Below are positions 11,658-60,390 of a DNA stretch of 64,000 bases, in pieces. Source of the DNA: Dehalococcoidia bacterium. GTDB taxonomy: Bacteria > Chloroflexota > Dehalococcoidia > Lucifugimonadales > UBA3495. Each line of letters begins with the position of its first letter. Within the stretch, counting starts at the first letter, position 1. The stretch lies in assembly GCA_965220245.1 (NCBI GenBank), contig CBDCPI010000008.1, positions 265,264 to 329,263 of the forward strand, read 5' to 3'. The position numbers and the translations under genes were made by a program. The notes below the pieces were generated by a model, which was not told the DNA's origin, ran no database searches, and saw only the letters and a program-made list of their open reading frames with translations.

Positions 11658-11661
11658 CTAA

Positions 11662-14135: not shown

Positions 14136-14161
14136 GACCGGCCCTCCTGACCAAGACCCGA

Positions 14162-29303: not shown

Positions 29304-32300
29304 TCAGCCGTTCGGCGGACTGGCGATGTAATCGCGGGCGGCGTTCTCAGCCTCGGTCGCTAGGGCGGCAATGTTGGGAACGGACTCTTCGCGGCCGAGC
29401 CGGACGAACAGGTAAACCACCTCGGACACGGGGCGGCCGGTGGCCCGGTTGACCGCCAAGGCGTAGGCCCCGGCTTGCATCCGGTAGTTTTGCAGGCGGG
29501 CTGCGGTCTGGTCGGCGTCCACGTCGTCGGTCTTGTAGTCCACTACAACCAGGTGCCCGTTTTCCTCGAAGAGCAGGTCGATGAAACCCTCCAAGACAGC
29601 GCCGCCTTCGAGGGGTATTCCAAGGGGGACTTCGCGCCAGTACCTGGTTGAATTGACGGCCCGCTGCACTATATCGCTGGCGATTGCCTTCCGGACCAAC
29701 TGGGCGACTTCGGCGCGGCGGTGGGGAATGCCCTCCGCCGTGGCCTGGGCGTTGGCGGTGTCGTCGATACCCGAACCGGTAGCCAAATCTATGGTCTGGA
29801 GCACCGAGTGGACGGCCCGTCCAACCTCGCTGCTGCCGCGCCCCCGCTTCCAAGGCTCATCGGACTCGGACTCCTCCTTGTCCACGCTGGCCAGGCGGGT
29901 AGCGGCGATGGATGTTGGGGCGCTGTTGGCCTTAATCAGGGCCGCTCGCGCCTTGGTCCATTGCTCCCGCTCTTCCAGTGAGTGGCTCTCCGGGTCGATG
30001 CCGTCAGCGCCGGATTCATCGGCTACCTTGGGGGGCAACTCGTGGGGCTGTGCCCTTTGCCACAGGTAGTCGCCGCCCTCGGCGAAGTCGGCTACCCGAT
30101 GGGCCAAGCTAATGCCCCTATCCCGGCGGTACATGCTGACGGCCAAGTGGTCGCGGGCCCGGGTAGCGGCGACGTAAAGCAGCCGGACAGCCTCTTCTTG
30201 CTCTAAGGCCCGCTCGAGGCTGAGGGCATCCGCATATCCGGGGGTCTCAAAACGGGAGCCCTCCGACCCAGCTCTGGCCTCGATGCTACCGTTCGTTCGC
30301 TCGAAAATAACGGGTCTGGAACCTCCGGTCCGGGATAAGTCGCTGTTAATCCGGGTCAGGATGACGATGGGGAATTCCAAGCCTTTAGCGGCGTGGACGG
30401 TCATAATCCGAACAGCGTCTTCGTCGGCGTCGGGACTCGCTGCTTCGGCGACTCGGGCGTTTTCGTCGCGTCGGCGGTCCATCCACTCGATGTAGCCGCG
30501 AAGCGATTCGCCCCCGGCGGCCACGAATCCGCGGGCTTGGTCGACCATGAACCGGTAGCGCCGCCAGTGCTCCCGGGTCCGCGGGTGGTCGAGGGCAAGC
30601 TGCATCAGATGCCGCTCCCGGATAAACCGGTCGATGAGGTGGGCTACCGAGTCCCAGTTCCGCGCCGCGTGATACCCGCGCAGCTTTTCCAATCCTTGGG
30701 AGACCGGGCCGCCAACCGGCCCGTGGAGTGTCAAATAGTCGAACCGGCTCCCGGCCTGATGAAATTCCAGCAGCTCCACGTCGGAGCAAGCAAAGGCCGG
30801 CGAGCGGAGCGCGGCGACAATCGCCACCTCGTCCGAAGGGTCGTCGATGGCCCGCAGGCAGTTCATCAGGTCGCGGACTTCCTGGGTGTGGAATACCAGA
30901 GACGCGCCCTCCATCCGGTAGGGCGCGTCCGCCGCTTCCAGCGCGTTCTCCAAGCTGGAGAGGCCGGTGCGGGCCCGCAGCAGAAGACAGATGTCCCGAA
31001 ATTCGGCGGGGCGGTAGCACTCTTGGCCCTCGGCCTCGGTCTTCTCCCGGTCCAGCACCTGCCAGCCATCCTCGACAATGTTCCGCAGCAGACGAGATAT
31101 GGCTTCGTCCTCTTGCCGCCTGACCTCAGCCGCACTGGCGCTTACGACGACATCGCCCAGCCGCCACACGGCGGGTCTGGGCTTGCCTTCGCCGCTGCCG
31201 CGCCCCTGCTTCCAAGGCTCACCTTCCCACCGGTGGACTATTGGTTCATAGCCGGGCTGGGTTTCTCCCTCCGCCATCCATGGACCAAAAATGTGGTTGA
31301 CCCACTCCGCCACCGGCTGCTGCGAGCGGAAGTTCTGGACCAGTTGGACGATCTCCCCGCCCATCTGCTCGCGCAACCCGGCGACTTGGCGGATGTCGGC
31401 ACGCCGAAAGCGGTAGATGGACTGCTTGGGGTCGCCTACCACGAACAGCTTGCCGCGTTCCGGGGTGATGTTTTGCCACTGGCGCGGCCGATCACCGGCC
31501 GCGCCGCCCAAAGGCGCATCTTCGGACAAGAACAAGGCGATTTCGGCCTGGATGGGGTCGGTGTCTTGGACCTCGTCGATCAGCAGGTGGGTGAAGCGCT
31601 GCCGGAAGTAGTCCCGCACCGCAAGGTTGTCCCGCAGCAGGTCCCGGGCCCAGACTAGCAGGTCATGGTAATTGGCGCGGCCCTGACGCTTGCGGCCGGC
31701 CGCGTAATCGAGGGCAAAACCGCGCAATTCCTGCAACAGGTGAGATAGCGCGGACTGCCGCACCGCCGCTATTTCATCATCCACTGCGGTCCGGACTTCC
31801 TTGACCAAGGCTTTAAGTTGCGTGCAGGCATTGGCACCGGTCTTCGAGTCTTTCCGCCAATCGGCCGTGCGGCCCCGGTTGCCGGGCGGCCAGAGAAGCC
31901 TCGTAAGTTGGAGGTAGCTGTCCGGCTCATCGGAAGGCGCTTTTCCCAGTCCCACCGCGATGCGAAGCAATCTCTGGACACCGGCATATAACGGGTCATC
32001 GTCTCTCAGGTCCGAATATTGGCAGAGCCTAGCGAGTTCATCGGACTCACTGAGGAGCCGGTCTGCCGCCGCGGCCTCGGGCATGAGAGCTTCGGCGATG
32101 TGATAGGACTCCAGCAGATCGTAGTTTTGGTGAAATTCCAGAGCTATATTCCGTAGCTGGTCCGGACTGAGTCCCATGGTGAAAGCCAATCGCAGGTCCA
32201 GGATGGTCTCGTCACGGCGCATCGCGCCGTCCAGCCAGTCCCGCCACCGCTCCTCGAAAGCCAACTCCCCCGCTATTTCGTCCATAATTTCGAATTCGGG

Positions 32301-32687
32301 CGGGAGTCCGGCCTCCAAGGGGCGCTCTTGCAGGATAGCCGCCGCAAAGCCATGCAACGTTTGGATCGAGGCAAGATCCAAGCCCTGCAAAGCGCGGCGG
32401 GCGCTTTCCTGCTCTGGTGGGCTGAGGGACTCGTCGGCCCCCGCCTTCTCCAGTCCCTCACGAATCCGGTGGCCCAACTCGGCGGCGGCAGCCTCGGTGA
32501 AGGTGATAGCCGCAATGCCGCCGATGGACGCCCGCCCGGTAATGACCAGCCTTAGCATCCGGCCCACCAAGCTGGAGGTCTTGCCGGTACCGGCGCCGGC
32601 CTCGACGAACAGCGTCTCGTCCAGTCGGTCGAGAATCTTCTCCCTGGCGCTTTGGTCTTGAGGCTGGAATGGGCCTGCCATGCTCAC
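29304..32687 (-). CDS. addA: UvrD/Rep-type helicase fused to a PD-(D/E)XK nuclease (AddA/AdnB-like)
   Basis: 1127 aa with Walker A FVEAGAGTGKTS, LLIDEVQDT, VGDPKQSIYRFRRA and the C-terminal nuclease motif VVDYKTD. The start overlaps the stop of the upstream gene. Confidence 0.8.
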   Translation of the reverse strand: MSMAGPFQPQDQSAREKILDRLDETLFVEAGAGTGKTSSLVGRMLRLVITGRASIGGIAAITFTEAAAAELGHRIREGLEKAGADESLSPPEQESARRALQGLDLASIQTLHGFAAAILQERPLEAGLPPEFEIMDEIAGELAFEERWRDWLDGAMRRDETILDLRLAFTMGLSPDQLRNIALEFHQNYDLLESYHIAEALMPEAAAADRLLSESDELARLCQYSDLRDDDPLYAGVQRLLRIAVGLGKAPSDEPDSYLQLTRLLWPPGNRGRTADWRKDSKTGANACTQLKALVKEVRTAVDDEIAAVRQSALSHLLQELRGFALDYAAGRKRQGRANYHDLLVWARDLLRDNLAVRDYFRQRFTHLLIDEVQDTDPIQAEIALFLSEDAPLGGAAGDRPRQWQNITPERGKLFVVGDPKQSIYRFRRADIRQVAGLREQMGGEIVQLVQNFRSQQPVAEWVNHIFGPWMAEGETQPGYEPIVHRWEGEPWKQGRGSGEGKPRPAVWRLGDVVVSASAAEVRRQEDEAISRLLRNIVEDGWQVLDREKTEAEGQECYRPAEFRDICLLLRARTGLSSLENALEAADAPYRMEGASLVFHTQEVRDLMNCLRAIDDPSDEVAIVAALRSPAFACSDVELLEFHQAGSRFDYLTLHGPVGGPVSQGLEKLRGYHAARNWDSVAHLIDRFIRERHLMQLALDHPRTREHWRRYRFMVDQARGFVAAGGESLRGYIEWMDRRRDENARVAEAASPDADEDAVRIMTVHAAKGLEFPIVILTRINSDLSRTGGSRPVIFERTNGSIEARAGSEGSRFETPGYADALSLERALEQEEAVRLLYVAATRARDHLAVSMYRRDRGISLAHRVADFAEGGDYLWQRAQPHELPPKVADESGADGIDPESHSLEEREQWTKARAALIKANSAPTSIAATRLASVDKEESESDEPWKRGRGSSEVGRAVHSVLQTIDLATGSGIDDTANAQATAEGIPHRRAEVAQLVRKAIASDIVQRAVNSTRYWREVPLGIPLEGGAVLEGFIDLLFEENGHLVVVDYKTDDVDADQTAARLQNYRMQAGAYALAVNRATGRPVSEVVYLFVRLGREESVPNIAALATEAENAARDYIASPPNG

Positions 32688-35600
32688 TCATCCTCGGCGG
32701 TAGCAAGTTCCGCGTAGGGCCGGACGGCGCTATCGCCGGACTTCCGCTGCCATAAAAGGTCACGCTTGGAGGGGCACAGCGCGTCGAAGTCACAGTACTT
32801 GCAGTTGGCAAAAGAGCCGCGATCGGCATTGCCCGGATTGGCCGGGAAGACGCCGGCGTCAATGCCGGAGACGATCAGGGACATGGTCCGGTCGAATTCG
32901 TCCTTGACGTCCGCCAAGCGCATCGGAGACTTGGGAGCCATTGAGAATCCGCCCCGGTTGCTGATGAACCAGTAAGCAGAATTGACATCCACATCCTCGC
33001 TCAAACCGCTTTGGACCGCCAGCGAGTAGATGGCCAGTTGAAGGCGCTGCCCGGCCTGTATCGGGTCTTTGTCCATGCCGGTGTAGCCAGATGAACTGCC
33101 GGTCTTGTAGTCGCGCACCAGCGCCTTGCGCCCGTCGGGAGACACGTCGACGCGGTCGATGTAGCCGCGGAACTCGATCCTGTCCGTATTGGGAAGCGTA
33201 ATGGCTGCGGCCGGCCATCCTCCGGCCACCCCGAACCCGGCCTCCAGCCAGGCCGGGGTGACGCCGTGTTCGTATCTGAGCCTAGAGTCTTCTTCCAAGA
33301 ACCGGTGCAGGTCGGCTCGAATATTGGCTTTGTCCATCTGCCACATCAGGTCTCGGCCGGTCATGCCGCGGGACTCGACCTCGTCGAACCTTGCCTCGGC
33401 AATCTCCATCAAGCGACGCCGGTGAGCATCATTCCATGCCTGGTCCGGCCGGGGCGCCGTGTTTTGATTGATGGCCTCGCCAACGAAATTTTCCAGAATG
33501 GCGTGTACCAGTGTCCCCCGGTCCACTGGCGAGAGGGATAAGCGGTCTTCGGGCTTTTCCACGGCGCGCAACCCCAGCACTCGCGACAGAAAGTAGCTGA
33601 ACGGACACGTGGCCCAAGCCTCTAGGCTGGTGGCCGACAAGGGCCGACGGGGCGCCAACCGGGGCTGGTTAACGATGGCGTCGGCCACGTTCCCGTCCCA
33701 GAGAGTGAAGGCGCCGCCGTAGCGCAGCCGGGCCAGTTGCACCGGCTTGGCGAGAGGCCCGTCGCCCGCCGCCATTGGATGCCGGTCCAGGCTGGCGCCT
33801 GATTTCTGCCACGCCCTCATCGAGTCCAAGTCGTAGTCGTGCAGGTCGGCGACGGAGGTCCGGTCGACGCCGTCCAGCGACTTGTCCATTGAGCCAAGGA
33901 TGGTCAGCCAGGGTTGCGAGGCCAGCCCACCCAACGTCGATGGGTAAACGGCTTGGCCGCTGAGATTCGAGGCCCGTTCCAAGAACCAGCGGGACGGGTG
34001 CTGCTCGCGTCCGCCTATGGGGTCGGAGGCGGGGCAGGACAGCCACCGCACCGGTGCCGAGTGCAGGGCGGCCAAGAACGTGTACCGTTCCTCGCTGGCC
34101 CGGTAGTCCCGCAGCGGTAGACCGGCCCCGCTGCCTTGCCCTGATTGAGACGAGGCGGCGCGGGCGCGCTCCGGCAGCAAGGAGTCGTCCCGCTGCGGCG
34201 GCGGAAACGCCCCCTCGACCAGGCCCACGATATGGACCACATCAAAGCTCATCCCGGCTGCCGCCCCCACCGGGGCTACGAACACGCCGCGGCCCGTCTC
34301 CCCGATGCGGCCCGGAGATACTTGCAGCGCCTCCTGAAAGACCTGCTCAAATGCGGCAAAGTCGGGCTGAACGTCGACAAAGTCCGCATGGCCGACTTCC
34401 GATAGGATTTCACTCACCTGACGGTGAGCGGCGTGGCCGGTTTCCGGAGCATCGGGGCCAAGGTCGAGATAGCGGTCCAACAGGCCGCTGGCCCATCCGG
34501 CAAGACCGCCCCAAGTGTTGTCGCCGCTGGGCGGTGTTGTATCTCCGGCCAGTGTCTCGACGAAGTCCTGCAACTCCCGGGCCGCCTTGGCCCGGTATCG
34601 AATGCCCTCTATCTGGTGCTCGGACAGCTCGCCGCGTGTCGGCGCGTTAGCCGCTGCCTGCTCCAGACCTTCTGCGAAACTGTGGAGCCGCTGCGTCCAT
34701 TGGTCCCGTCCGCCGACCACACCGGCGTCCCGGGATATTGCATCCCAAAGGCTGGGGTTGATTTTGCGGCCAGCCGACCCAACTGGGCAGCCAGTAAGCC
34801 AAGCCATGACCTCGTCGCGCATAAAACCGCCCTGGCACAAACGCAGCAGGCCGGTCAGCGCACGTCCGGCGCCGGTGCTGGCCAGGGTGGCGGGGTTGGG
34901 CCCGGTGATAGGAATCCCGGCCAGTTTCAATTCCTCCAGTAGCTGGACGCCGTAGGGCTCCCGGCTGCGGTATAGCAGGGCCATGCGATGGAAGGGGACT
35001 CCGGCGTCCGCCTGCTGGACAATGTGGCGTATCGCGCTGCGTATTTCTTGGTGGGGGTCGGGCGCCACCAGCAGCGTCTCCCAGTCCAGCGTCTCACAGT
35101 CCGAGGAAGGAACTCCGTCGTCGTCTCGCAACCGCTCCGGCCGCTGGCCACTGGCCACCAGCCACTGGGATTGCGCCGGCCCGAATATGTGGGCCAACCG
35201 CTCCGCCACCAAATGCGCGGGCGCGTCGGCGGACTCGTCGCCAGTCAAGTCGAGGTACACCGAGCACTGCCCTGCCGCCGCAAGTGCTTCAATCAACGCC
35301 ATTTCGCCACGGGTGAGGCGGCGCACCTTGTAAAACACGACGAATCCCAAGTCGGCCAGGCCAAGCGAGTGGCTGCTTCTCACCGCCTCGGCGGCGGCGA
35401 GGGCCAGGTCTTCCCGGTCGTAGAAGCCGGTGGCCGTGCGCTCCCGGAAGGCCCGGTAGAGCCGCACCACCTCGGCGCGCAGACCGTCCTCGCCTTCCAG
35501 AATAGCGAGGGCATCCTCGGAGACCGGCCGCAGTTCGCGGAAGGTGCGCGCCAGGCTGCGAATGGTCGAAGGGTGAAGACGCTGCTCGCGGAGAGGGCCG

Positions 35601-35962
35601 GCCGCTTGGGCGCACACTGCTCGCACCGATGCGCTTTCAAGGACCGGCGTTAGCGGGCGCCGTCCTTGGGCGGCCAAAGCCGGGGCCGCCAGTAGCTCGG
35701 CTAGGCGGGGCAGCACCATAAATCGCACGTTACACAGGCCGGAGCGCCCCAGCTCTCGCCGCAGCTCAAGGTTGGCAAAGCCCGACGGCCCGATCACCGT
35801 TACCGGCCGCAGCGGGTCACCCCGTTGCAGCGATGCCACCGCCTCGCCCAACGCTTCGTTGGCTTGGCCGCGGTTGGTTTGGTCTCCGTTTGTTTGATCA
35901 ATGAAAAACAGCCCGGCGCCGTCGCGTCTCTCGGTTGCCTGCCCATTTCCAGTATTACTCAT
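32684..35962 (-). CDS. addB: AddB-like PD-(D/E)XK nuclease subunit with Fe-S cysteines
   Basis: 1092 aa. It has WATCPFSYF, the nuclease motif VRDYKTG, and a CKYCDFDALCP cluster. The Walker A is degenerate. Confidence 0.7.
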   Translation of the reverse strand: MSNTGNGQATERRDGAGLFFIDQTNGDQTNRGQANEALGEAVASLQRGDPLRPVTVIGPSGFANLELRRELGRSGLCNVRFMVLPRLAELLAAPALAAQGRRPLTPVLESASVRAVCAQAAGPLREQRLHPSTIRSLARTFRELRPVSEDALAILEGEDGLRAEVVRLYRAFRERTATGFYDREDLALAAAEAVRSSHSLGLADLGFVVFYKVRRLTRGEMALIEALAAAGQCSVYLDLTGDESADAPAHLVAERLAHIFGPAQSQWLVASGQRPERLRDDDGVPSSDCETLDWETLLVAPDPHQEIRSAIRHIVQQADAGVPFHRMALLYRSREPYGVQLLEELKLAGIPITGPNPATLASTGAGRALTGLLRLCQGGFMRDEVMAWLTGCPVGSAGRKINPSLWDAISRDAGVVGGRDQWTQRLHSFAEGLEQAAANAPTRGELSEHQIEGIRYRAKAARELQDFVETLAGDTTPPSGDNTWGGLAGWASGLLDRYLDLGPDAPETGHAAHRQVSEILSEVGHADFVDVQPDFAAFEQVFQEALQVSPGRIGETGRGVFVAPVGAAAGMSFDVVHIVGLVEGAFPPPQRDDSLLPERARAASSQSGQGSGAGLPLRDYRASEERYTFLAALHSAPVRWLSCPASDPIGGREQHPSRWFLERASNLSGQAVYPSTLGGLASQPWLTILGSMDKSLDGVDRTSVADLHDYDLDSMRAWQKSGASLDRHPMAAGDGPLAKPVQLARLRYGGAFTLWDGNVADAIVNQPRLAPRRPLSATSLEAWATCPFSYFLSRVLGLRAVEKPEDRLSLSPVDRGTLVHAILENFVGEAINQNTAPRPDQAWNDAHRRRLMEIAEARFDEVESRGMTGRDLMWQMDKANIRADLHRFLEEDSRLRYEHGVTPAWLEAGFGVAGGWPAAAITLPNTDRIEFRGYIDRVDVSPDGRKALVRDYKTGSSSGYTGMDKDPIQAGQRLQLAIYSLAVQSGLSEDVDVNSAYWFISNRGGFSMAPKSPMRLADVKDEFDRTMSLIVSGIDAGVFPANPGNADRGSFANCKYCDFDALCPSKRDLLWQRKSGDSAVRPYAELATAEDE

Positions 35963-36195: not shown

Positions 36196-36945
36196 TCACA
36201 GAGGCAATACTGCCCCGGCTTCCCGCAGCCGCTGGCGCCGTTGCTGGACGTCCGGCATCACTTGGGCCACCAGGTCCCAGAAATTCCTTGAGTGGTTCTT
36301 GACCTTCAGGTGGGCCAATTCATGGACGACCACGTACTCGATGAGTGCGGGCTCCAGCATCATGAGCCGCCAGTTGAAACGCAGCGTGCCGTCGGCGGCG
36401 CAACTTCCCCAGATTTGGCGCTGGTCACGGATCAGAAGCCGGGGTTTGATCACGCTTCCAAAGGCGGGCAACCACTCATCGACGCTGGCCTGCAATCGCA
36501 CGGCGGCCTTGGCGCGGTACCACTCTATAATACTCCGGCGCAGGCGTTCATAGCGCTCGCTGTCGGGGATAGCAGCCGGCATGGTCACCCGGAATTGCCA
36601 GTGGTCGAAGCGCACCTCCGGTGACCGGACAGTGTCGCTTTGCTCGATGATAAGCCGAACGTTGCGGCCCAAGTACGGTAGCGTCTCGCCGCTGACCAAG
36701 GGCTTCGGCGCGGCCCGGAGCACCGCCTCCTTGGTGTGCTCGAGAATCCAAGGCGCACGCTTGCGGACGATCTCCCGCAGTTCGCTGTCCGGTGTCGCCG
36801 CGGGAGCCGCTACCTGCACGCCATCGCCATCCACGGTGATCTGGACCGTTTTCTTGCGCCGCGCGCTGCGCCGGACCTGGTACTCGATGGTAGTACCGCG
36901 GAAGCGGATGCAGTCTCGGGAAAACGGTTGCCCGGCGGCGTCCAA
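36196..36945 (-). CDS. DUF45/YgjP-like (M48/SprT-like) zinc metallopeptidase
   Basis: 249 aa with the HExxH motif YVVVHELAHLKVKNHSRNFW. Confidence 0.75.
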   Translation of the reverse strand: MDAAGQPFSRDCIRFRGTTIEYQVRRSARRKKTVQITVDGDGVQVAAPAATPDSELREIVRKRAPWILEHTKEAVLRAAPKPLVSGETLPYLGRNVRLIIEQSDTVRSPEVRFDHWQFRVTMPAAIPDSERYERLRRSIIEWYRAKAAVRLQASVDEWLPAFGSVIKPRLLIRDQRQIWGSCAADGTLRFNWRLMMLEPALIEYVVVHELAHLKVKNHSRNFWDLVAQVMPDVQQRRQRLREAGAVLPL

Positions 36946-36950: not shown

Positions 36951-37403
36951 TCAGCCCCGTGCCTCACGCAGCAACCGGAATGCCGTCGAACCTAGCAAGA
37001 GCGGCAGCGTCGAGTCGCTGAGGACCCATACAAGCGGTTGGGTGGTCACTGGCTCGGACCACTCGACGCCGACCCAGTTCCAGAGGACCGCCGCCAGAAG
37101 CGCACCGGAAAAATAGAAAACGCCGTTCGCCTCCAGATACTCTCGGGTAATCGATTGGTCGGCCTTCTCGGCGTCCAGCCGGCGCTTCCGGGCGAAGGCG
37201 AGGAGCAGCACCATCGACAATCCGGCCACCATAATCGGATCGATGACGCGCCACGCGGTGAGCACCCCGCCCTGCAAGTCCGGATCATAGAACTGGGTTC
37301 CGATAAAGTGCACCAGCACTGTCCCGGCCAAGCAAAGCATGAAGACAGCGGCAAGCCGCTTCACCAAGGGCGAATTCAGAATATCCATGAGGAGTCCCTC
37401 CAA
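36951..37403 (-). CDS. Small integral membrane protein (about 4 TM), unknown function
   Basis: 150 aa with hydrophobic segments: AAVFMLCLAGTVLV, IMVAGLSMVLLLAF, FYFSGALLAAVLW, LPLLLGSTAF. It lies 5 nt upstream of the DUF45 gene. Confidence 0.5.
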   Translation of the reverse strand: MEGLLMDILNSPLVKRLAAVFMLCLAGTVLVHFIGTQFYDPDLQGGVLTAWRVIDPIMVAGLSMVLLLAFARKRRLDAEKADQSITREYLEANGVFYFSGALLAAVLWNWVGVEWSEPVTTQPLVWVLSDSTLPLLLGSTAFRLLREARG

Positions 37404-37524
37404 CTGGGCCTACGTTCCATTGAACTGGCAGTCAAATTGTAGGGCACCGAAGAATGGTGTGGCGTCAAAGCCTTGAAAGTTGGTGGCAGGGAGGTCTGGA
37501 TACTCCGTCAAGGGGGCTCCGAGG

Positions 37525-37584
37525 CGCCCGGATAACTCTTTGAGCCTCTTGGGACTCAACTGGTATACTCAAAGAGTTCGGGCG
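37525..37584 (+). promoter_or_regulatory. Long inverted repeat enclosing a candidate extended -10 promoter upstream of ptuA
   Basis: The left arm cgcccg(gat)aactctttgag (37525-37544) pairs with the right arm ctcaaagagttcgggcg (37568-37584). This gives 17 bp of pairing with a 3-nt bulge. Within it are TTGAGC (37540-37545), an 18-nt spacer, and TGgTATACT (37561-37569). Confidence 0.35.
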
Positions 37585-37640
37585 CCGGACAGGGTCACGA
37601 AATTCATGCACCTATGGACGAGGCCAAAGGGGCTATTACC

Positions 37641-38951
37641 ATGCACATACTACACATACAAATCGTAGATCTGCCACCGCTGGAATATGTGCGCTTCAAT
37701 TGCGACGAACGGGTGAACCTCTTCATCGGCCCAAATGCGACCGGTAAGAGCACTATCCTCCGAGCAATTAACAGTTTAGACTCCGTGGACAAGGACTCGC
37801 TCCCCGAAGATGTTGGCTTCGAATTCTACCACTCCAACGACCAAGCCAGATCATTTTTCGTGGAAGCGACCCCCGATTGGTTGTGGGATACTTCGCGCCC
37901 TACCCAGGCGCCATGGGACGAGGTTCCTCTCTTGTACATACCTGCTACCCGGGTCAACCTGCCGGGAGTAGACATTTACGACAAGACAATCGACAGGATG
38001 GAGAACGACGAGGCTAATGCTCCACTGAAAGACCTGTTTGATACAGACTCCGGGATCTTCGACGGCCAATACGTAGAACTGGCGATAGAACGGCTTCGTG
38101 AGATAATGACTGGAAATCGGAGCCAAGAGACCCAGCTCAGAAAAGCTGTGCAAGTCGGTTATTCTTGTGCCCAGTCCATTTGTCTTGAAGTAATACACGA
38201 TGATATGCCACACACCTACGTTGAGCTGAGAGACGAGGACGACGATGAAGAGGGATTCCATGTAACGGAAAGGATTGTCCACTATGACATGGGAATCGGG
38301 ACCACCGACGATATTTTGGGAGAACCCTTATACGCCGGCGCCTTGAGTTCAGGGACGCAAGGCACTCTTTTGTGGGTCTGGGCCTTGGCCCTCAAAATGG
38401 TGAACAACTATGGTTGGACAGAGGGTTGGGAAAAGAAGCCAGCCATCCTGCTGATTGACGAGATAGAGAACCACCTGCATCCAACCTGGCAGCGGCGGGT
38501 TATCCCGGCGTTGCTGGAGCATTTTCCGGGGTTGCAGATATTCGCCACTACCCACTCGCCCTTTGTGGTGGCCGGGCTGAAAGCCGGACAGGTACACCTG
38601 CTGAAACGGGACGAAAACGGTCGCGTCACCGCCACGACCAACACCAAGGATGTTGTTGGCTGGACGTCGGACGAGATTCTGCGGACGATGATGGGCGTGG
38701 ACGACCCGACGGACGATGCAACGGCGGCGGCGGCGCGGGAGTTGCGGCAACTGCGCAAGGAAGGGCCGCGGAATGCCCTGGAAGAGGAGGAACGACGGCA
38801 GGAGCGGATTCAGGAGTTGCGGCAGCACGTAGACCGGGACTTGCTGGCCGGCGGTCCAATGGCGGCGCGGCGCGAGCTATTCGAGCAGCAATTCGCCGAA
38901 GCGTTGGAGAAATACCGGCAATCGAAGAACATTAACCAAGAAAACGGTTAA
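37641..38951 (+). CDS. ptuA: AAA/ABC-type ATPase, Septu PtuA-like
   Basis: Walker A LFIGPNATGKST, Walker B LLIDEIENHLHP and ATTHSPFVV. The HNH gene follows immediately. An alternative start lies at 37614. Confidence 0.6.
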   Translation: MHILHIQIVDLPPLEYVRFNCDERVNLFIGPNATGKSTILRAINSLDSVDKDSLPEDVGFEFYHSNDQARSFFVEATPDWLWDTSRPTQAPWDEVPLLYIPATRVNLPGVDIYDKTIDRMENDEANAPLKDLFDTDSGIFDGQYVELAIERLREIMTGNRSQETQLRKAVQVGYSCAQSICLEVIHDDMPHTYVELRDEDDDEEGFHVTERIVHYDMGIGTTDDILGEPLYAGALSSGTQGTLLWVWALALKMVNNYGWTEGWEKKPAILLIDEIENHLHPTWQRRVIPALLEHFPGLQIFATTHSPFVVAGLKAGQVHLLKRDENGRVTATTNTKDVVGWTSDEILRTMMGVDDPTDDATAAAARELRQLRKEGPRNALEEEERRQERIQELRQHVDRDLLAGGPMAARRELFEQQFAEALEKYRQSKNINQENG

Positions 38952-38954
38952 CTG

Positions 38955-39512
38955 TTGCACTCGGTACGACGCTCTCCGGAACCCGACTTTTTCGCCGGAC
39001 TCATTGCTGTGCATACGGAATGGGACGCTCTGGAACCCTCAGACCGTCCGCGCATACGTCGGGCGTTGGAGCGAGATTTTGGGCAAATTTGCGCCTACTG
39101 TGAGCAGCTTTGCCAACTACCAACCCGGTCCGGTGAATCTGCCAACGACGCAACTATCGACCACTTCCGCCCACGCCGCCGGTTTCCGGACCTATGGCTC
39201 GACTGGCTAAACTTGATACATGCCTGTCACAGATGCAATCAGGCTAAAGGAGGAAGCTGGCCCGGTTACGACGATGCGGAGATCAACAATAGGCTGACTG
39301 CCTTGAATCCTCGGTATACGCCGGTATCGGAGTACGTCAGTCCAAACGCGGTCAACAGTCGGCGGCCGGCGCGTGAATTCTTTGGTTTCGATGTTGTGAC
39401 CGGCGAGATTGCACCCGCAGAGCAACTTGACCCAGTGGAGTGGTCAATGGCCCGCAGGACTATCAGGGACATCGACTTGAACGACAGCGAACTGGGAGAA
39501 AACGATCCTTAA
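38955..39512 (+). CDS. ptuB: HNH endonuclease (TIGR02646-like), Septu PtuB-like
   Basis: CAYCEQ ... TIDHFRP ... LIHACHRCNQAKG. TTG start 3 nt after the ptuA stop. A coding-looking tail of about 67 codons continues in the +1 frame to 39702. Confidence 0.6.
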   Translation: MHSVRRSPEPDFFAGLIAVHTEWDALEPSDRPRIRRALERDFGQICAYCEQLCQLPTRSGESANDATIDHFRPRRRFPDLWLDWLNLIHACHRCNQAKGGSWPGYDDAEINNRLTALNPRYTPVSEYVSPNAVNSRRPAREFFGFDVVTGEIAPAEQLDPVEWSMARRTIRDIDLNDSELGENDP

Positions 39513-39781
39513 TCACCTATGGAACCAGCGTCTGGACCACCTTGACTTGGTGTCACAGAGGCTCGACGCTTTGGAGGATTTTGATTCGAAAGTCCAGATA
39601 ATGTTCGAGTTCATGTTGCCGGATAAACCCTTTTCCGCGTTTATTTTCGCTTACTTTACAGGCCGCTTTCCTCCGCTTGGCCAACTGTTCCAGCAGCATT
39701 GACGCCCGGATTCGCTTGGCGCGAATTTCTCCGTTAGGCCGGAGGCTGTCGAAAGGTCTATCTACCTACCCCCGCCCGTCC

Positions 39782-39883
39782 GTAACTGTTCAGACTTGAG
39801 GTGAATCGGCCCTTCGACTCCGCTGCGCTGCGCTCAGGGTGAGCGGTTCCGTGTCAGTGAGCCCACCAACTCTGAACGGTTAT
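39782..39883. mobile_element. Second copy (inverted) of the GTAACAGTTCAGA-TIR MITE
   Basis: gtaactgttcagacttgaggtgaatcggcccttcgactccgctgcgctgcgctcagggtgagcgg ... aactctgaacggttat is the reverse complement of the 12958-13059 family. No intact target-site duplication is visible. Confidence 0.6.
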
Positions 39884-44003: not shown

Positions 44004-44783
44004 ATGCCCTTCTTAACCCTTCCGGGAGTGGACCTGTGGTACCAGGACACCGGCGGCCCCGGTACTCCGGTGGTCTTCTTGCACGCCGCTTCGGGGACCG
44101 CCGAAAGCTGGGGGCATCAGTTGCCCGCCTTCACGCCGGCCGGCTACCGGTGCATCACCTACGACCGGCGCACCTGGGGGAGGTCCCGGCCCACCAGCCC
44201 CGACGATCAGCCGGGCTTCGTGGGAGACGACCTCCATGGACTGGTTGAGAGACTGGGCTTGGAGCGTTTCCACTTGGTGGCTACGGCGGCGGGTGGCATC
44301 GCCGGGCTGGACTACGCGCTGGACCATCCGGAGCATGTCCGCAGCCTGGTGGCGGCTAACAGCATCGGCGGCGTGCAGGACCCGGACTACCTGGAGGTCC
44401 AGAACAGGCTTCGACCGCCGGAGATACAGCAACTCCCAGTAGAGTTGCGCGAGCTTGGCCCCTCGTACCGGGGTACCGACCCGGAGGGCGCCGCCCGCTG
44501 GTTGGAGATCGAGTTGGCCAGCCGCCCTTATGGGAGGGCGCCCTCGCAGCCTTCACGCGACCCGATCACCTACGCCAGGTTGCAGACCATGCGCGTCCCG
44601 GTGCTGGTGCTGGTGCTGTCGGGAGAGGCGGACCTTCTCTCACCTCCGGCGCTGATGCGGATGCTGGCGGCCCATATCCCCGCCTCTCGTTTCGTCTCGC
44701 TCCCCGATGCGGGACACGCGGGTTTCTGGGAGAGACCGCAGATCTGGAATGGCCTAGTCTTGGAATTCATCGGCCAGCACTAG
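44004..44783 (+). CDS. Alpha/beta-fold hydrolase-like protein (nucleophile position is Ala)
   Basis: It has the HG-type N-terminus VVFLHAASG. The nucleophile elbow reads LVATAAGGIAG instead of GxSxG. Asp (GEADLL) and His (DAGHAGFWE) are retained. The stop TAG at 44781-44783 coincides with the IS630 insertion site. Confidence 0.6.
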   Translation: MPFLTLPGVDLWYQDTGGPGTPVVFLHAASGTAESWGHQLPAFTPAGYRCITYDRRTWGRSRPTSPDDQPGFVGDDLHGLVERLGLERFHLVATAAGGIAGLDYALDHPEHVRSLVAANSIGGVQDPDYLEVQNRLRPPEIQQLPVELRELGPSYRGTDPEGAARWLEIELASRPYGRAPSQPSRDPITYARLQTMRVPVLVLVLSGEADLLSPPALMRMLAAHIPASRFVSLPDAGHAGFWERPQIWNGLVLEFIGQH

Positions 44784-46016
44784 TAGTCCATCAGTGTTGT
44801 ATTGATGGGTATAGGGACTTAAGTTTGATGCGGGCGTCTGCGGTGGTGAACCGCCAGTCTACCCGCACCGTGTCCCGGTTGCGCTGACCTTGCCATGCTT
44901 CTATCTCCCGCCGAAGGGTGCTTTGGTCTGGAATGCGGCGGTTCAGGCATTGGCGTGCCAGCACCCCGATTTCGATCTCGGCCATATTCAGCCAACTCCC
45001 ATGCTTGGGCGTGTAGTGGATCTCCAACCGTTCGGCGATGCGTCGCGCTTCGGCGGGTTCAAACGCTTGGTACAGCGAGGCCGGATGATGGGTGTTCAGG
45101 TTGTCCATCACCAGCACTATCCGGTCCTTGTCAGCGTAGTCCACGTCCACCAGTTGCTTGACCACCCACGCCCAATCGGCTTTCGTGCGCTGCTCCGTCA
45201 CTTCCACCCGGCGCCATCCCTCCAACGGCGCGAACAGCATGAACAGGTTGCTCACCCCGTTGCGTTCGTATTCATAATCAAAAGCGCCTGCCGCTCCAGG
45301 GCGGGGCGGGCGCGGCAGGCGCTTTTCCTTCACCTGCTGTTTGCTGGTCTCGTCCAGGCACACCAGAACTTCGTTGTCCCTATATTGGCGATGGTAGACT
45401 TCCAGCACGTCCTCCATCGCGCACACGAACTCCGAACTGCCTTCCGGCGGGATGCACCAGCACTCTTTCAGCCAAGGCTTGAGTTCGTTTTTTTGAGCGT
45501 TTGGCGCACCGTTTCGGTGCTGATGCTCTCCACTATCTCGCATTCGATCAGCCGGTCCGCCAACAATTTCAGCGTCCAACTTACCCGGCCCTCCGGCGGT
45601 TGGGAGCAGGCCAATGCAACCAGATGGGCCTCTCCCTGACCGTCCAGCTTCTTCTGGCGGCGGTTAAGTTGCACTCTGCGTCCCAAGGCCGCTTCAACCC
45701 CCTCCTCCACGCAACGGCGGCGCACCCGTTCCACCGTCGCACCGCCAATCCGGAGGGACCGGGCAATTTCCTCGTCCTTCATGGCCCCGTCACCTTGGGC
45801 CTCATCACTCAGCAGCAAGATGCGGGCGTGGGTCTGCTTGTAGGCCGCCACCCGCCCCCGGGACACCAGCGCCAGTAGTTCCTCTTGCTCCTCCGCACTC
45901 AGTTTGACCCGGTATTTCTTCACCGACATCCCCTCCTCCCACGCCCCAATCCTCTTGGTCCTATGCCTGGTAGAATACACCCGGCCAGTCCTCAATTCAA
46001 AACTGTTAGGCTACTA
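44781..46016 (-). mobile_element. IS630-family insertion sequence, copy A (1236 bp including TA flanks)
   Basis: TIR TAGTAGTCCATCA / TAGTAGCCTAACA with TA at both ends. orfA is 45468-45995 (HTH) and orfB is 44791-45579 (DDE). They are linked by a -1 frameshift at the T7/A7 run 45488-45494. It is diverged from copies B and C. Confidence 0.85.
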
Positions 46017-46221
46017 GGCCGCGAACGGGTCCGTATTGGGGTGTACTGAAACCTTTTTGTCCAGCTTGGTTGGCCTGAGTGCACGGTAGGTGGTACTGTC
46101 TTCGAGATGTGGCTGGGGCACGATTAACCCACTGACGACTTCTGTCCAAATAACGGGGTCCACCTCAGCTATGGAGTACGCCCCGTCCTTGATATCTCAA
46201 AATGCGGTGTATTTCGCATCT

Positions 46222-49535: not shown

Positions 49536-50287
49536 GACGGCTACCGCACTCCTGCCTTAAGTTCTTGGGCCAGATTGTTCAAACCATTGCTGTCCTGAGC
49601 GTGAATCTTCGGGTTGCCTATCTTTTCATAGAATTGCAAGAATTCCTCCAAGGGGAGGAGTTCGGCACCTTCCCGGGTAGTTCGGCCAACTGAAACTTCT
49701 TCCCCTGAATGGTGATTCCTGAGCCGGCTAACGCATTCTTCCACGACCCTGATGTCCAAGGAATCTGTGCTACTTGCCTTCTCAAAGGTGGAACTGACCT
49801 CCTTCAAGAAATCCCCATTCAAGTCGAGATCTCCTTCTGACTCTTGCATCAGAGATTGCCACTCTTCCAAGAGTTCTTGCCGCCGCTGCATTCGCTCCAC
49901 TTGTAGTTCGTTCTTGATTGCCTCAAGAGCATCATATACAGGCCTGAAGTTGAGGACTGCCTCTACGTCCAAGTCTCCCAAAGTGTTCTGGAGTTTATTC
50001 CACTGGGATCCTTCAAATTCGATTACTCCATCTTTCTCAGCCTGGTCAACAGCAGCCTGAGTCAGTTCAATAGCTGCTCTGAGTGTATTCTTCTCGGTAG
50101 TAAGCTCCGCCATGTACCTGTTCTTGTTGTGGTCCAATGACTCCTTGGGCATTCCCGACATCAAGAGGCCGGAAAATCGGAAATCCCGGTGATCCATACG
50201 GCTCTGTAGTGCGGCTTCCAAAGAAACGCTTCCTTGGCGCAAGCCTGCTATGGCCCTAGCCAAATCCACCAAAGAGTCCTCTGACGC

Positions 50288-51523
50288 TAGTAGTCCAACA
50301 TCTTTGAATTGAGTACTGAGCAAGTGTATTCTACCAAGCATAGGGCGAAGAGGATTGGGGCGTGGGAGGAGGGGATGGCGATGAAGAGATACCGGGTCAA
50401 GCTGAGCGCGGAGGAGCGGCAGGAACTGAAGGCATTGGTGTCCCGTGGCCGGGTGGCGGCTTACCAGCAGACCCACGGGCGTATCCTGCTGCTGAGTGAT
50501 GAGTCCCATGCGGACGGGGGCATGAAGGATGAAGACATTGCCCGGGTTCTCCAGATTGGCCGTGCGACGGTGGAACGGGTGCGCCGCCGTTGCGTGGAAG
50601 AGGGTCTGGAGCGGGCCTTGGGGCGCAAGGAGCAACTGAACCGGAGGCAGAAGCGGTTGGACGGTCAAGGAGAAGCCCACCTGATTGCCTTGGCCTGCGC
50701 TGAACCGCCAGAGGGCCGGGCCAGTTGGACGCTGAAACTGTTGGCCGACCGACTGGTCGAATGCGAGATAGTGGAGAGCATCAGCCCTGAAACAGTGCGC
50801 CAGACGCTCAAAAAAACGAACTCAAGCCTTGGCTGAAAGAGTGCTGGTGCATCCCGCCGCAAGGCAGCGCCGAGTTCGTCTGTGCGATGGAAGACGTGCT
50901 GGAAGTCTATCAGCGCCAGTATGCGGACAACGAAGTTCTGGTCTGTCTGGACGAGACCAGCAAGCAACAGGTGAAAGAGACGCGCCGGCCGCGGCCGGCC
51001 CAGCCTGGGGCGCTGGGCTCCTACGATTACGAATACGAGCGCAACGGGGTGAGCAACCTGTTCATGTTGTTCGCTCCGCTGGAAGGGTGGCGCCGGGTGG
51101 AAGTGACGGACCGGCGCACCAAAGCCGATTGGGCCCGGGTGGTCAAGCAACTGGTGGACGAGGACTACCCGCACAAGGACCGTATTGTGCTGGTGATGGA
51201 CAACTTGAACACCCACCACCCGTCCTCGCTGTACGAGGAATTTGAACCTGCCGAAGCACGGCGCATCGCCGAACGGTTGGAGGTCCACTACACTCCCAAG
51301 CATGGCAGTTGGCTGGATATGGCCGAGATTGAAATCGGGGTGCTGGCCCGCCAATGCCTGGACCGCCGTATTCCCGATCAAAGCGCTCTGCGGCGGGAGG
51401 TGGGAGCGTGGCAGCAACGGCGCAACCGGGACGGCATACGAGTGGACTGGCGCTTTACCACCGAGGATGCGCGCATCAAACTGAAGTCCCTTTACCCATC
51501 AATCCAACACTGATGGACCACTA
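50288..51523 (+). mobile_element. IS630-family insertion sequence, copy B
   Basis: TA-flanked, with TIR TAGTAGTCCAACA / TGATGGACCACTA. orfA is 50309-50836 and orfB runs to 51513. They are linked by a -1 frameshift at A7 (50810-50816), giving LKKNELKPWLKECWCIPP. Differs from copy C by only a few SNPs. Confidence 0.9.
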
Positions 51524-51972: not shown

Positions 51973-53430
51973 TATTACAACGACGGTTCAAGGAGGGACG
52001 TGTGGGGAGGCACGAAGGGCGGCTCGACGCTTGGCATGGGAGTGTCTGGCCCGCTCGTTGCATTCTTGCGTCTCCTCCAGCCACCGCAGCAGTTCAGCCG
52101 GCCCGAACCGTTCCCGGGGCAGCATCTCCCGCACCACCCGGTAGACCTGCGGTCTCGTGATCCGGGGCATCTTTTCCCCCCCAAGCCTGTTGCAGGCTCA
52201 GGAGAAACGCTCCGCCCAGCAGGCACAGGGCGACGTGATGATGCCATCCCGCCCAGGTGCGGGTCTCGTACTCGTCCAGCCCCACGTTGCTCTTTTCCGT
52301 CTCGAACTCCGTTTCTATGCGCCACCGGGAGCCACCCACGTATGCCAGGGTCTCCAGGGGAGTATCCTCCGGATCGTTGGACAGGTAGTAGCGGGGCTCG
52401 CTGCCGTCCAGGTTCCGGCGGTAAATGGCCCAGTGGATTTCGCCAGGCTTCCGCCTGCTGGTTGGACGCACCCTCTGAGCGCTGAACAGGTAGCTGCGGG
52501 GACCCTGGCTTCCCTCGGCCACCGTAATCTCACGCCAGGCCTCCTCCGGCAATTCATCGCTGCGCTGCTCCATGGTCCGGCGCTGACCGTCTCGCAACTT
52601 GGGTTTGCGGGGACGCCCGAATCCCTGATGCTCCGGCCTGGTCCAGGCTGGCTCCAGCGGCCAGACCGTGGTGCCGCCGGGAACGTCCAGCACGTAGCGC
52701 ATCCCCAGCGCCGCCAGTCCCTCACGGAAGGACGGCGACATCCCGAAGGCGTCGTCCCCCGCAACCCATCCGGCCCTCAGATGTCCCCGCTCCAAGGCCC
52801 GCTCCACCATCTTCAGCGCCAATTGGGTCTTCGACTGGTAGCCCTGCCTCTCCTCCGGAACCCCCGCCGCCTCACACCGGTCTTGGTCCGAGGTCCAGCT
52901 CTCCGGCAGATAAAGCCGTTTGTCCACCAGGGCCCGTCCCAGCGGGCTGACGTAGGCGAGGAACATTCCGGCCTGGCAGCTGGCCACCTTGCCCAGCCTC
53001 CCGCAATACTGACGGGCCACTCCCACGGACTTCCTGCCCTGCTTCGGGAAGTCGCTGCCGTCCAGCACCCACACCGCATCCGGATGTCCCAGCCGGGGTC
53101 CCAAGTACTCTTGAAGGCGTCCTATGACTGTGTCGTCATCCCAGGGGGATTCAGCGAGAAACCGCTGCATCACCCTGGCTGACGCCGGAACCGTCTCCGA
53201 CAGATTCTCGGCGTTGCGCCGCTCCCCGGACTGTACCAGGAGAGCCTGGAGGTAATGGCGGCTGTGGTCCCGCGCTTCCCTGCGGCCAAACAGCGGAGCG
53301 AAGTAAGCGTGAAAATCCTGAAAGGTCCCGTACACCTGCTCGAAAACCGCAGCATCCACTTCCCTGCCTCACTTGCCCAAGCCTTCCCCAACTACCCCGT
53401 CATCCTATCATCCCAACCGTCGTTGTAATA
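51973..53430 (-). mobile_element. IS701-family insertion sequence
   Basis: TIR tattacaacgacggtt / aaccgtcgttgtaata. CTAG direct repeats at 51969-51972 and 53431-53434 fit YTAR. The 421-aa transposase is at 52094-53359 (LDGSDFPKQGRKSVGVARQYCGRLGKVASCQAG). Confidence 0.8.
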
Positions 53431-54917
53431 CTAGCATTGCCAACGATATCTCCTTGTCTGGAAGGCCGACCTCCTATTAAGTTCTCTGCCTGGTTGATAA
53501 CTTCGGCGTACCGATCCCGATTGAGACCATCGATGTAGCTCTGCACTGTGTTGACCTGGTCCCTCATGTCTTGCGAAAAAGGCGTCAACATTTGGTAAAG
53601 AACACCTTCTCCGCAAAGGTATTGCCATGCTCTTACAGCCCTGGAAAAATTGGTCTGATATTTAGGGGCTTCCTCCAACCACTTTCGAGCCTCTGCGCTT
53701 GCCTCCACAATCAAGCCTTGGAGCCGCTGCAGACCCTCATCGCCAGTGATGTGCTCCGGGCGTAGGGAATTCCCTGCGGCGGCGAACACTCTAATCGGAG
53801 ATACGATTGATTCGATAGCTGGCAGGCAACGAGGGGAGGAAAGCCACGCGAGAAGATTCGTTTCGGGAGCTATTAGTGTTGGCAAGAGGCCTGCAGACAG
53901 CCGAAGCAAAGTTTGTGCGTCGTCGTCGTCAATGGCTTCGAATTCGCCTACTATGTCAAATAAGTCCCCCACGTACGTATCAGAATCTGAGGAGAGCCAG
54001 CGCCCTCCTTGCAAAGCTTTCAACACTTGAGGTGGGACGGGCGGATTCGACCCCTGAGCGATCATTGACCTCGCGACCCAGTAGGCTCCTGCCAAGTCGT
54101 CCTGCGCTACGAGATCCCAAAGGATCGACGGGACATCATGGACAGGGTGTCGCTTGGCGAAAACCGTGTAAGTTCGCGTCGTTTCGTTGTCTTCCGCCGT
54201 AACCATAACGTGCAAGGCTAAGTTGTCCTTCCCTAGAGCATCCCCGGCAATTACAAAGCTACCATCATCGGACAATGAGCTATCGACTGTCGTACCGTCA
54301 GACAGAACAGCGGCCAAAACAACAGTAGCCTCTGCATGGGCAGTTTCAGGGACAATGGTCAAACTGTCCAACTCTTCAGGCAAGTCTACGTTAATTTGGT
54401 TATCTCCCGGAGGAAATTCCAAGGGCGTTTCTTGCAGGTGCAGCCTCTCAAGGCTGGCATTGCTGCTTCGGGTGGGGGCCACCAAACTGTTCGGTGCCCG
54501 AGTTACGGCCAACTTGTAGGTTTCGCTGTATACGGGATCTTCAACGACAATGTTGATGGAGATGACAGTCTGGCCGACAACGAGATTCGAGACAACGAAC
54601 GTTCCGTGGTCGGATTCCAATTCTTCGATAATTTCGCCATTTGGTGTTAGAACGGCTACCTCGAAGGTGACGTCCACATGATCTGACTCTGGTGTAATGG
54701 CTAGCGATTCTACCGCATTGTTCAAATTTATCGTGTAGTTCGTCTGCGTTGGGCTAAAGTCCAAAGTCCCTACGGATAGCCCAATTGTGGACAGGCGCTC
54801 AGTGTTGTTGGGTTCCTGTTCCGCGATACGAACCTGGTGATCCGGTGTCGACTCAACTGGGTCTTGAAATACAGCATCCGCTGTCGTCAGCGCCTTATCC
54901 AATTCTGATTTGAGATC

Positions 54918-56153
54918 TAGTAGTCCAACATCTTTGAATTGAGTACTGAGCAAGTGTATTCTACCAAGCATAGGGCGAAGAGGATTGGGGCGTGGGAGGA
55001 GGGGATGGCGATGAAGAGATACCGGGTCAAGCTGAGCGCGGAGGAGCGGCAGGAACTGAAGGCATTGGTGTCCCGTGGCCGGGTGGCGGCTTACCAGCAG
55101 ACCCACGGGCGTATCCTGCTGCTGAGTGATGAGTCCCATGCGGACGGGGGCATGAAGGATGAAGACATTGCCCGGGTTCTCCAGATTGGCCGTGCGACGG
55201 TGGAACGGGTGCGCCGCCGTTGCGTGGAAGAGGGTCTGGAGCGGGCCTTGGGGCGCAAGGAGCAACTGAACCGGAGGCAGAAGCGGTTGGACGGTCAAGG
55301 AGAAGCCCACCTGATTGCCTTGGCCTGCGCTGAACCGCCAGAGGGCCGGGCCAGTTGGACGCTGAAACTGTTGGCCGACCGACTGGTCGAATGCGAGATA
55401 GTGGAGAGCATCAGCCCTGAAACAGTGCGCCAGACGCTCAAAAAAACGAACTCAAGCCTTGGCTGAAAGAGTGCTGGTGCATCCCGCCGCAAGGCAGCGC
55501 CGAGTTCGTCTGTGCGATGGAAGACGTGCTGGAAGTCTATCAGCGCCAGTATGCGGACAACGAAGTTCTGGTCTGCCTGGACGAGACCAGCAAACAGCAG
55601 GTGAAAGAGACGCGCCGGCCGCGTCCGACCCAGCCTGGGGCGCTGGGCTCCTACGATTACGAATACGAGCGCAACGGGGTGAGCAACCTGTTCATGTTGT
55701 TCGCTCCGCTGGAAGGGTGGCGCCGGGTGGAAGTGACGGACCGGCGCACCAAAGCCGATTGGGCCCGGGTGGTCAAGCAACTGGTGGACGAGGACTACCC
55801 GCACAAGGACCGTATTGTGCTGGTGATGGACAACTTGAACACCCACCACCCGTCCTCGCTGTACGAGGAATTTGAACCTGCCGAAGCACGGCGCATCGCC
55901 GAACGGTTGGAGGTCCACTACACTCCCAAGCATGGCAGTTGGCTGGATATGGCCGAGATTGAAATCGGGGTGCTGGCCCGCCAATGCCTGGACCGCCGTA
56001 TTCCCGATCAAAGCGCTCTGCGGCGGGAGGTGGGAGCGTGGCAGCAACGGCGCAACCGGGACGGCATACGAGTGGACTGGCGCTTTACCACCGAGGATGC
56101 GCGCATCAAACTGAAGTCCCTTTACCCATCAATCCAACACTGATGGACCACTA
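54918..56153 (+). mobile_element. IS630-family insertion sequence, copy C
   Basis: Same ends and TA flanks as copy B. orfA is 54939-55466 and orfB runs to 56143. Confidence 0.9.
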
Positions 56154-60164: not shown

Positions 60165-60390
60165 TTAGAGGTAACGGTATTGACCCCTTCAGGGAAGGAA
60201 CTCGCTAGATTCTGTGAACACGAACCGAGTTTAGAATATTTATCATGTTTCGCCAGATATCTAGAAACACAGAATTGTAGCCTGAAACTGGCTCCGATAA
60301 TTAGCGTGACCCCGGACGGGAGAATGCAGTTCTATGAAAGGGAGTTGCGTACCTTGTGATAAGGATCCTGAGAGTTGAGGTATCCTCACC

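Follow-up and report, generated by a model that had tools for sequence, protein, structure and literature searches.

The closest described systems are those of the Septu family, in which the ATPase PtuA is paired with the HNH nuclease PtuB. PtuA and PtuB assemble in a 6:2 ratio, adenosine triphosphate (ATP) is inhibitory, and DNA is nicked (PMC12640716). Septu has also been found to cut the variable loop of the tyrosine transfer RNA (tRNA-Tyr) with an abortive-infection phenotype, and the Walker and HNH residues are essential for defence by the E. coli system (PMC13096335). The C-terminal domain (CTD) of PtuB forms a nine-helix bundle with two C-terminal extensions (CTEs) of PtuA, and PtuB depends on PtuA for its function (PMC12819146). 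Here we describe a locus of this type in a stretch of 64,000 nucleotides (nt) of contig CBDCPI010000008.1 from a Dehalococcoidia bacterium, which we call the window: the identity of its two proteins, the structure of the operon, the footprint of its promoter, and a frameshift in ptuB with what it removes. The locus is very likely a stand-alone Septu cassette that was acquired horizontally and carries a frameshifted and most likely inactivated ptuB. It is an ordinary, known two-gene system, a new member of Septu and not a new kind.

The ATPase and HNH pair and its interrupted ptuB

More than 20 PtuA models of PADLOC match the ATPase (best E 1.3e-38). Pfam AAA_21 and AAA_15 match it as well, and its best sequence match in the PDB is 8ee4_A, the PtuA of E. 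coli Septu (E 1.3e-19). The protein has the Walker A motif GPNATGKST, the ABC signature LSSGTQG, the Walker B motif ILLIDEIE and the H-loop TTHSP. In an alignment of 36 PtuA sequences of the family, the invariant residues are G30-P-N-x-x-G35-K36, S236-x-G-T-Q240, D273-E274 and H305, and every one of them is kept in the window. More than 1700 ptuA homologues are known to the databases searched, the closest being 57-74% identical and starting with MHI. The TTG start of ptuB lies 3 nt past the ptuA stop. The HNH protein is matched by the PADLOC models HNH_I-A (E 5e-20) and PtuB (E 3.5e-19), by Pfam HNH, and by TIGR02646 with 62.4 bits against a cut-off of 52.15; its sequence matches in the PDB are retron-associated PtuB chains. 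The residues of its CxxC...DH...N...CxxCN motif are invariant across an alignment of 41 sequences. An earlier note on this DNA had proposed a Septu-type pair, with Walker A and B motifs in the ATPase and a TIGR02646-type HNH gene 3 nt further on. All of these elements are in the sequence and form a tight two-gene operon, and the assignment is borne out by the PADLOC matches to PtuA and PtuB, NCBIfam/TIGR02646, the PDB sequence matches and a fold match. Judged by homology, the pair is a real stand-alone (type I) Septu.

Relatives were sought in one genome per species; 217 were found, and the best 80 loci were examined (81 loci with the window). In all 80, ptuB directly follows ptuA, with a gap of 2-3 nt in most and of about 10 nt or less in every one. 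The open ptuB frame is 222-261 amino acids long in these loci, save for two cases at contig ends and three disrupted alleles.

In the window, PtuB has 185 amino acids. One extra T at 39508/39509 gives rise to a stop, the TAA at 39510-39512, and puts the remainder of ptuB out of frame. The earlier note had taken ptuB as a whole gene ending at 39512; this stop is premature, and the note had missed the frameshift and the loss of the PtuA-docking CTD. In L003, a contig of a 97%-identical strain, ptuB is uninterrupted, encodes 248 amino acids and ends at the equivalent of window position 39702, which is where the ancestral gene ended. Removing one T from the ptuB of the window restores a 248-residue protein ending ...RFPPLGQLFQQH / ...FSAFIFAYFTGRFPPLGQLFQQH, as in L003, and the 72%-related locus L001 has the same conserved PtuB tail.

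The 63 lost residues make up a distinct part of the protein. The window PtuB ends just before a block with the nearly invariant residues H187, L188, R192, F219, P225, F226, S227 and F229 in the 41-sequence alignment. The HNH active-site residues C46, C49, H70, N86, C91, C94 and N95 are retained. In an AlphaFold model of the full-length homologue P0139 (predicted local distance difference test score 89.9), residues 188-245 include four helices, and all 11 significant PDB matches (E <= 0.001) in a fold search with this model are PtuB chains aligned over their full length, including 8eea_G of E. coli Septu. A full-length PtuB with this helical domain, absent in the window, is present in L003 and in about 75 of the 80 relatives. 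Since the PtuB CTD docks onto the PtuA CTEs (PMC12819146), the truncated PtuB keeps its HNH site and loses its docking domain.

The identical extra T is found in L096, a separate Logan assembly of run ERR13605531 reported from two samples, which argues against an assembler artefact. The truncated protein P0137 ends ...ELGENDP, as does the window PtuB. Because the extra T removes the docking domain and recurs in the Logan assembly, the system is probably inactivated. Most likely, the Septu allele in the window was inactivated recently, with a nuclease that PtuA would neither recruit nor control any longer. If the frameshift is real, it appears to be recent, as the remnant behind it is undecayed.

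Disrupted ptuB genes next to an intact ptuA are also seen in three other members of the clade, L015, L039 and L042 (at about 11280-12040), as two frameshifts and one truncation to 148 amino acids. They suggest a recurrent loss of the nuclease subunit in the clade.

Several observations weigh against this reading of the locus. The NCBIfam equivalog models for PtuA and PtuB, which are built on retron Ec78, score far under their cut-offs (124 against 500 and 68 against 150), and therefore the pair is not an equivalog of the retron effectors. The PADLOC PtuA matches mostly span the Walker A segment and residues ~235-410, the middle region being specific to the clade. Phage defence by the Dehalococcoidia PtuAB clade is presumed from homology, not from experiment. 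As to the frameshift, the Logan contig may stem from the same reads as the assembly of the window, so that its independence is unproven, and an error in the consensus could account for the extra T. The remnant differs from L003 by four synonymous changes and one non-synonymous change and shares 90% identity with L005 across 129 nt; this apparent purifying selection relative to L003 would be in keeping with a mutation of very recent date or with an error.

These last points are the case for an intact and functional Septu, in which the extra T was introduced by mistake during sequencing or assembly and the real PtuB has 248 amino acids. The uninterrupted ptuB of the closest strain, L003, and the undecayed out-of-frame tail both speak for it, and the source of the window appears to be a metagenome-assembled genome (MAG). 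On the other hand, the insertion also occurs in the separately built Logan contig from two samples, the site is only a TT dinucleotide and no long homopolymer, and ptuB disruptions recur in the family. We consider an error unlikely, with a real chance of being correct.

Ribosomes can be prone to shift at a CCU codon that precedes a stop, and the window has CCU in front of the stop, with the tail open reading frame (ORF) intact. The split of ptuB could then be tolerated or deliberate, either through a +1 ribosomal slip at CCU-UAA or with the HNH part and a 51-residue tail made as separate polypeptides. This is very improbable: close relatives do not share the slip site, as every one of them is in frame; the tail ORF alone has no match; and a nuclease without a covalent link would not be expected to reach PtuA (compare PMC12819146). 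An inactivated ptuB is the reading that we retain.

Promoter, palindrome and gene starts

The start of ptuA was revised from its homologues. In 35 of them the protein begins MHI..., which corresponds to the ATG at 37641, and the ribosome-binding context GG(A)GCTATTACC-ATGCACATA is kept in L001 and L002; therefore, ATG 37641 is taken as the true start. The homologues of the divergent membrane protein are 136-147 amino acids long, pointing to a start at ATG 37388. With these two starts the intergenic region is about 252 base pairs (bp) long, so that the divergent arrangement described in the earlier note stands and its length of 210 bp does not.

A consensus scan of this region finds a sigma-70-like TTGAGC-18-TATACT with an upstream TG at 37540-37569, overlapping both arms of a palindrome. 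Taken alone, the scan is at chance level: the region yields one site where 1.4 would be expected. The 39-nt block at 37534-37572 is the only upstream non-coding sequence common to other loci, with 87% identity in L008 and 85% in L020. Furthermore, TGGTATACT with at most one mismatch occurs 36-98 nt before the ptuA ATG in 14 of the 81 loci, against 0.57 expected from the background rate. The conserved block and the recurrent TGGTATACT therefore indicate that the cassette carries its own promoter, and the promoter candidate TTGAGC-18-TGgTATACT, proposed earlier from the letters, gains the backing of a phylogenetic footprint.

Inverted repeats also bracket the -10 in L026, L006, L024, L051 and L043, in the 100 nt upstream of ptuA (at about 9900-10000). 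In a second promoter class (TGTGATAAAAT) they are, for example, CCCCATT...AATGGGG and TTGCCCAAC...GTTGGGCAA, and in L043 the pair CGCCCG...CGGGCG lies around TGGTATACT.

The inverted repeat whose arms overlap the promoter, which had been noticed before, is present as 11-bp perfect arms (37534-37544 and 37568-37578) with eight more pairs past a 3-nt bulge. Folded as DNA it reaches -22.1 kcal/mol (z = -7.1), and none of 200 shuffles was as good. No other of the 81 family loci has so long an inverted repeat upstream, and 10 bp was reached by only one of 405 shuffles. In L003 the palindrome is identical but for one outer-arm base. L008 and L020 keep the left arm, which is the conserved -35 region, and TATACTCAA, and do not keep the right arm beyond CTCAA. 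Inverted repeats ahead of ptuA in the other 80 loci do not exceed those of shuffled sequences in length. The full palindrome is real and specific to the lineage of the window and L003, and it is possibly regulatory.

The arrangement invites the proposal that the palindrome is an operator, on which a dimeric host repressor bound to both arms would occlude the -35 and -10 and hold the toxic ptuAB silent pending a signal. In its favour, the palindrome far exceeds what chance would give and brackets a conserved promoter, and of 31 family promoters 6 have inverted repeats of at least 7 bp bracketing the -10, where 1.9 would be expected, a count in which several of the loci are related to each other. 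Against this, the full palindrome is confined to the lineage of the window and L003, the right arm in L008 and L020 is not complementary beyond CTCAA, and the match of repeat lengths to shuffles in the 80 other loci led us to reject an operator common to the family. The centre-to-centre distance of the two arms, 34 bp, is atypical. No helix-turn-helix or other DNA-binding regulator was found in the cassette or conserved near it in the 80 loci. The operator role suggested in the earlier note is not established by these data, and we regard it as unlikely. A broader version, in which Septu of the clade is transcriptionally gated and the repeats bracketing the -10 in the window, L026, the L006/L024/L051 group and L043 are all operators for a host repressor, is decidedly less likely still. 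If true, it would add a transcriptional layer of control to a system whose only control has so far been taken to be post-translational, by ATP.

Two other roles of the palindrome were rejected. It is not a dispersed element of the repetitive extragenic palindromic (REP) kind, as its arms occur nowhere else in the window, and it is not an intrinsic terminator, as no T-run follows it on either strand and a terminator scan finds none there.

The cassette, its neighbours and its distribution

The coordinates of the main features are collected in Table 1.

Table 1. Features of the Septu locus, in window coordinates
Feature	Position	Strand	Details
DUF45, YgjP-like metallopeptidase	36196-36945	-	Pfam E 9e-56; guanine-cytosine (GC) content 63.9%
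Membrane protein, no family match	36951-37388	-	GC 61.2%
Imperfect palindrome around promoter	37523-37586		GGCGCCCG-gat-AACTCTTTGAG ... CTCAAAGAGTT-CGGGCGCC
Cassette promoter block	37534-37572	+	-35-like TTGAGC 37540-37545, 18-nt spacer, extended -10 TGGTATACT 37561-37569
ptuA, Septu ABC-type ATPase	37641-38951	+	436 amino acids, intact; database gene calls use the upstream ATG (ORF 37614-38951, 445 amino acids)
ptuB, HNH-nuclease part	38955-39512	+	185 amino acids, TTG start, premature TAA from frameshift
Frameshift site	39508-39509	+	TT against a single T in the intact allele, GATCC[T]TAATCACC; alignment with L003
ptuB C-terminal helical domain remnant (ancestral residues 186-248)	39510-39702	+	+1 frame; longest inner ORF 39547-39702

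Nucleotide homology to other loci extends from the promoter block at ~37534 to ~39735, about 30 nt past the ancestral ptuB stop. The GC content of ptuA and ptuB is 55.1% and 54.5%, against 61-66% in the flanking genes. Because of this difference in GC and because homology is bounded by the promoter block and the end of ptuB, the cassette (~37534 to ~39735) is judged to have been gained horizontally. It sits between the membrane-protein/DUF45 pair and a gene for a BNR/sortilin-like protein. Large flanking ORFs of the window (~25.6-44.8 kilobases (kb), by Pfam) encode AddA/AddB-like helicase-nucleases, the DUF45 protein, the membrane protein, the BNR/sortilin-like protein, an SMP-30 lactonase, two acetyl-xylan esterases and hydrolases.

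All of the best 80 of the 217 relatives come from Dehalococcoidia, Chloroflexota or SAR202 MAGs, with 44-72% identity, and the clade of the cassette is, as far as these sequences tell, confined to Dehalococcoidia/Chloroflexota. When every ORF of at least 90 amino acids in the 21-kb loci was clustered, PtuA and PtuB were the only genes universal to the 80 loci. Other recurrent neighbours are metabolic genes common to syntenic sub-clades; among them, as read by eye from representatives, are a luciferase-like monooxygenase, an SDR protein, an alpha/beta hydrolase, a DUF362 protein and a flavin mononucleotide-dependent dehydrogenase.

The earlier note had suggested that the divergent DUF45 and membrane-protein genes are co-regulated accessory components, to be recognised by their co-occurrence with ptuAB. 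Of the 80 related loci, one has DUF45 within 10 kb of ptuA and none has the membrane protein within that distance. Five other contigs (four look-ups) carry homologues of the membrane protein (51-60% identical) next to genes for carbonic anhydrase/ZnuA/Fur, glyoxalase/AAA_14 or coenzyme A-transferase, and neither DUF45 nor PtuAB was near them. PADLOC has no match for either protein. The GC content of both genes is host-like, near the 64-66% of the flanking genes, and both lie on the strand that also holds the AddB/AddA-like genes. When metagenomes were scanned with DUF45, no more than six loci came up, all distant or short, and none served as an empty-site comparator; a literature search found no link between DUF45 and Septu. 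The two genes are not accessories, because of this near-absence of co-occurrence, the unrelated neighbourhoods of the membrane protein and the host-like GC; on this evidence they are chance host neighbours of an inserted cassette.

What could be said for a four-gene system, with the metallopeptidase and the membrane protein as co-regulated Septu accessories, is the divergent arrangement around a shared intergenic region and the single locus, L036, in which a 60%-identical DUF45 gene stands next to ptuAB. In L036, however, this gene is on the opposite side, downstream of and convergent with ptuB, and beside genes that resemble toxin-antitoxin genes by ORF sequence. Together with the counts above, this makes a four-gene system scarcely credible. 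In L036 the region 12266-14301 contains DUF45, then a HicB-like ORF, then a PIN/VapC-like ORF with a small antitoxin-like partner, and it looks like a small toxin-antitoxin or defence islet. In the window, the AddA/AddB-like pair (29304-35962, - strand) lies directly downstream of the membrane-protein and DUF45 genes and encodes a UvrD + PD-(D/E)XK protein of 1127 amino acids and a PD-(D/E)XK protein of 1092 amino acids.

Several repeats were seen in the window. A 101-nt intergenic repeat is present at 39782-39882, 80 nt downstream of the ancestral ptuB stop, and at 12959-13059, in two copies that are 95% identical and inverted. It has terminal inverted repeats of about 17 nt, GTAACTGTTCAGACTTGA ... 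TCAACTCTGAACGGTTA, and looks like a REP or a miniature inverted-repeat transposable element; fragments with only its terminal inverted repeat lie at 5584-5603, 9386-9401 and 9551-9566. The repeat is present in L003 and absent from the other 80 ptuAB loci, and therefore it is not part of the cassette. A cassette bounded by inverted copies of this repeat had been considered on account of a weak 19-nt match between 37468-37486 and 39863-39881 and a suggestive MAFFT alignment. It was rejected: the Smith-Waterman score is 18 against a shuffle mean of 16, and 232 of 1000 shuffles reach 18. Further away, a 1.24-kb direct duplication (50287-51523 and 54917-56153, 99.6% identity) flanks a DDE_5 transposase gene (52094-53359), with a gene for a cadherin-like domain (53400-55310) between the duplicates and a third, inverted and 85% identical copy at 44781-46017. 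A 953-nt inverted repeat (10707-11659 and 59216-60168, 99.7% identity, copies ~48 kb apart) carries in each copy an ORF of 264 amino acids with no Pfam match and may be an unclassified mobile element.

The 217 relatives found in species-representative genomes show that Septu is common in Dehalococcoidia/Chloroflexota, where it travels as a minimal cassette made up of its promoter and the two genes ptuA and ptuB. The recurrent ptuB knock-outs would fit a cost of carrying a toxic nuclease. The locus also cautions that divergent neighbours should not be read as components of a system, nor a premature stop as the end of a gene. Beyond annotation, its importance is small.

Comparison with known systems

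The intact members of the Dehalococcoidia clade may act like characterised Septu. By analogy with the published systems, PtuA would oligomerise, and paired PtuA CTEs would clamp the helical PtuB CTD. ATP binding would hold the HNH nuclease silent, and phage infection would free it to cut DNA or tRNA-Tyr, so that infection is aborted. In the window, the +1 insertion ends PtuB at residue 185, leaving the HNH part intact and removing the whole domain that docks onto PtuA.

The locus is most like stand-alone Septu (E. coli PDB 8EE4/8EE7/8EEA; Septu EcB88), which likewise has an ABC-type ATPase of ~440 amino acids and, next in its operon, a TIGR02646 HNH protein with a helical CTD, and which has no reverse transcriptase (RT). 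The best PDB match of PtuA is 8ee4_A from this system, and the family PtuB fold matches 8eea_G. It differs from E. coli PtuA in that only ~120 residues (234-356) align (E 1e-19), the central PtuA region being specific to the Dehalococcoidia clade, and from stand-alone Septu in general in that the window PtuB ends before the docking domain.

Retron type I-A (Ec78/Eco7 and Ec83/Eco4; type II Septu) has a homologous PtuA/PtuB effector module. The closest PtuB folds are 9nnb_J and 9n69_F, and the same docking of PtuA CTE and PtuB CTD would be expected. In contrast to these retrons, the locus lacks an RT, msr/msd and PtuA's N-terminal extension, and the cut-offs of the NCBIfam retron equivalogs are not reached. 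That the pair is itself a retron I-A effector module with an RT plus a non-coding RNA nearby is the least credible of the alternatives: the PADLOC ATPase_I-A and HNH_I-A scores are near those of the PtuA and PtuB models and the best PDB sequence matches of PtuB are retron PtuBs, but no RT domain was found by Pfam in the large ORFs scanned around the pair (~25.6-44.8 kb) and no RT among the clustered neighbour ORFs of the 80 loci, Rfam (and with it msr/msd) and tRNA scans at the locus gave no match, the retron-PtuA equivalog scores 124 against 500, and PtuA with 436 amino acids resembles stand-alone PtuA (465) and not retron PtuA (~550). With no RT, no conserved third gene and no Rfam match, the locus thus counts as a Septu of the stand-alone kind with two genes, not as a retron I-A.

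PARIS AriA/AriB, Gabija GajA and the OLD family share the ABC/AAA_21-type ATPase core with PtuA, and AriA is close enough that its PADLOC models match at E 2e-26 and its PDB chains at E 1e-4. These systems differ in the partner, which here is an HNH nuclease and not one of the TOPRIM/DUF4435 kind, and the PtuA models score much better on the ATPase of the window than the AriA models do.

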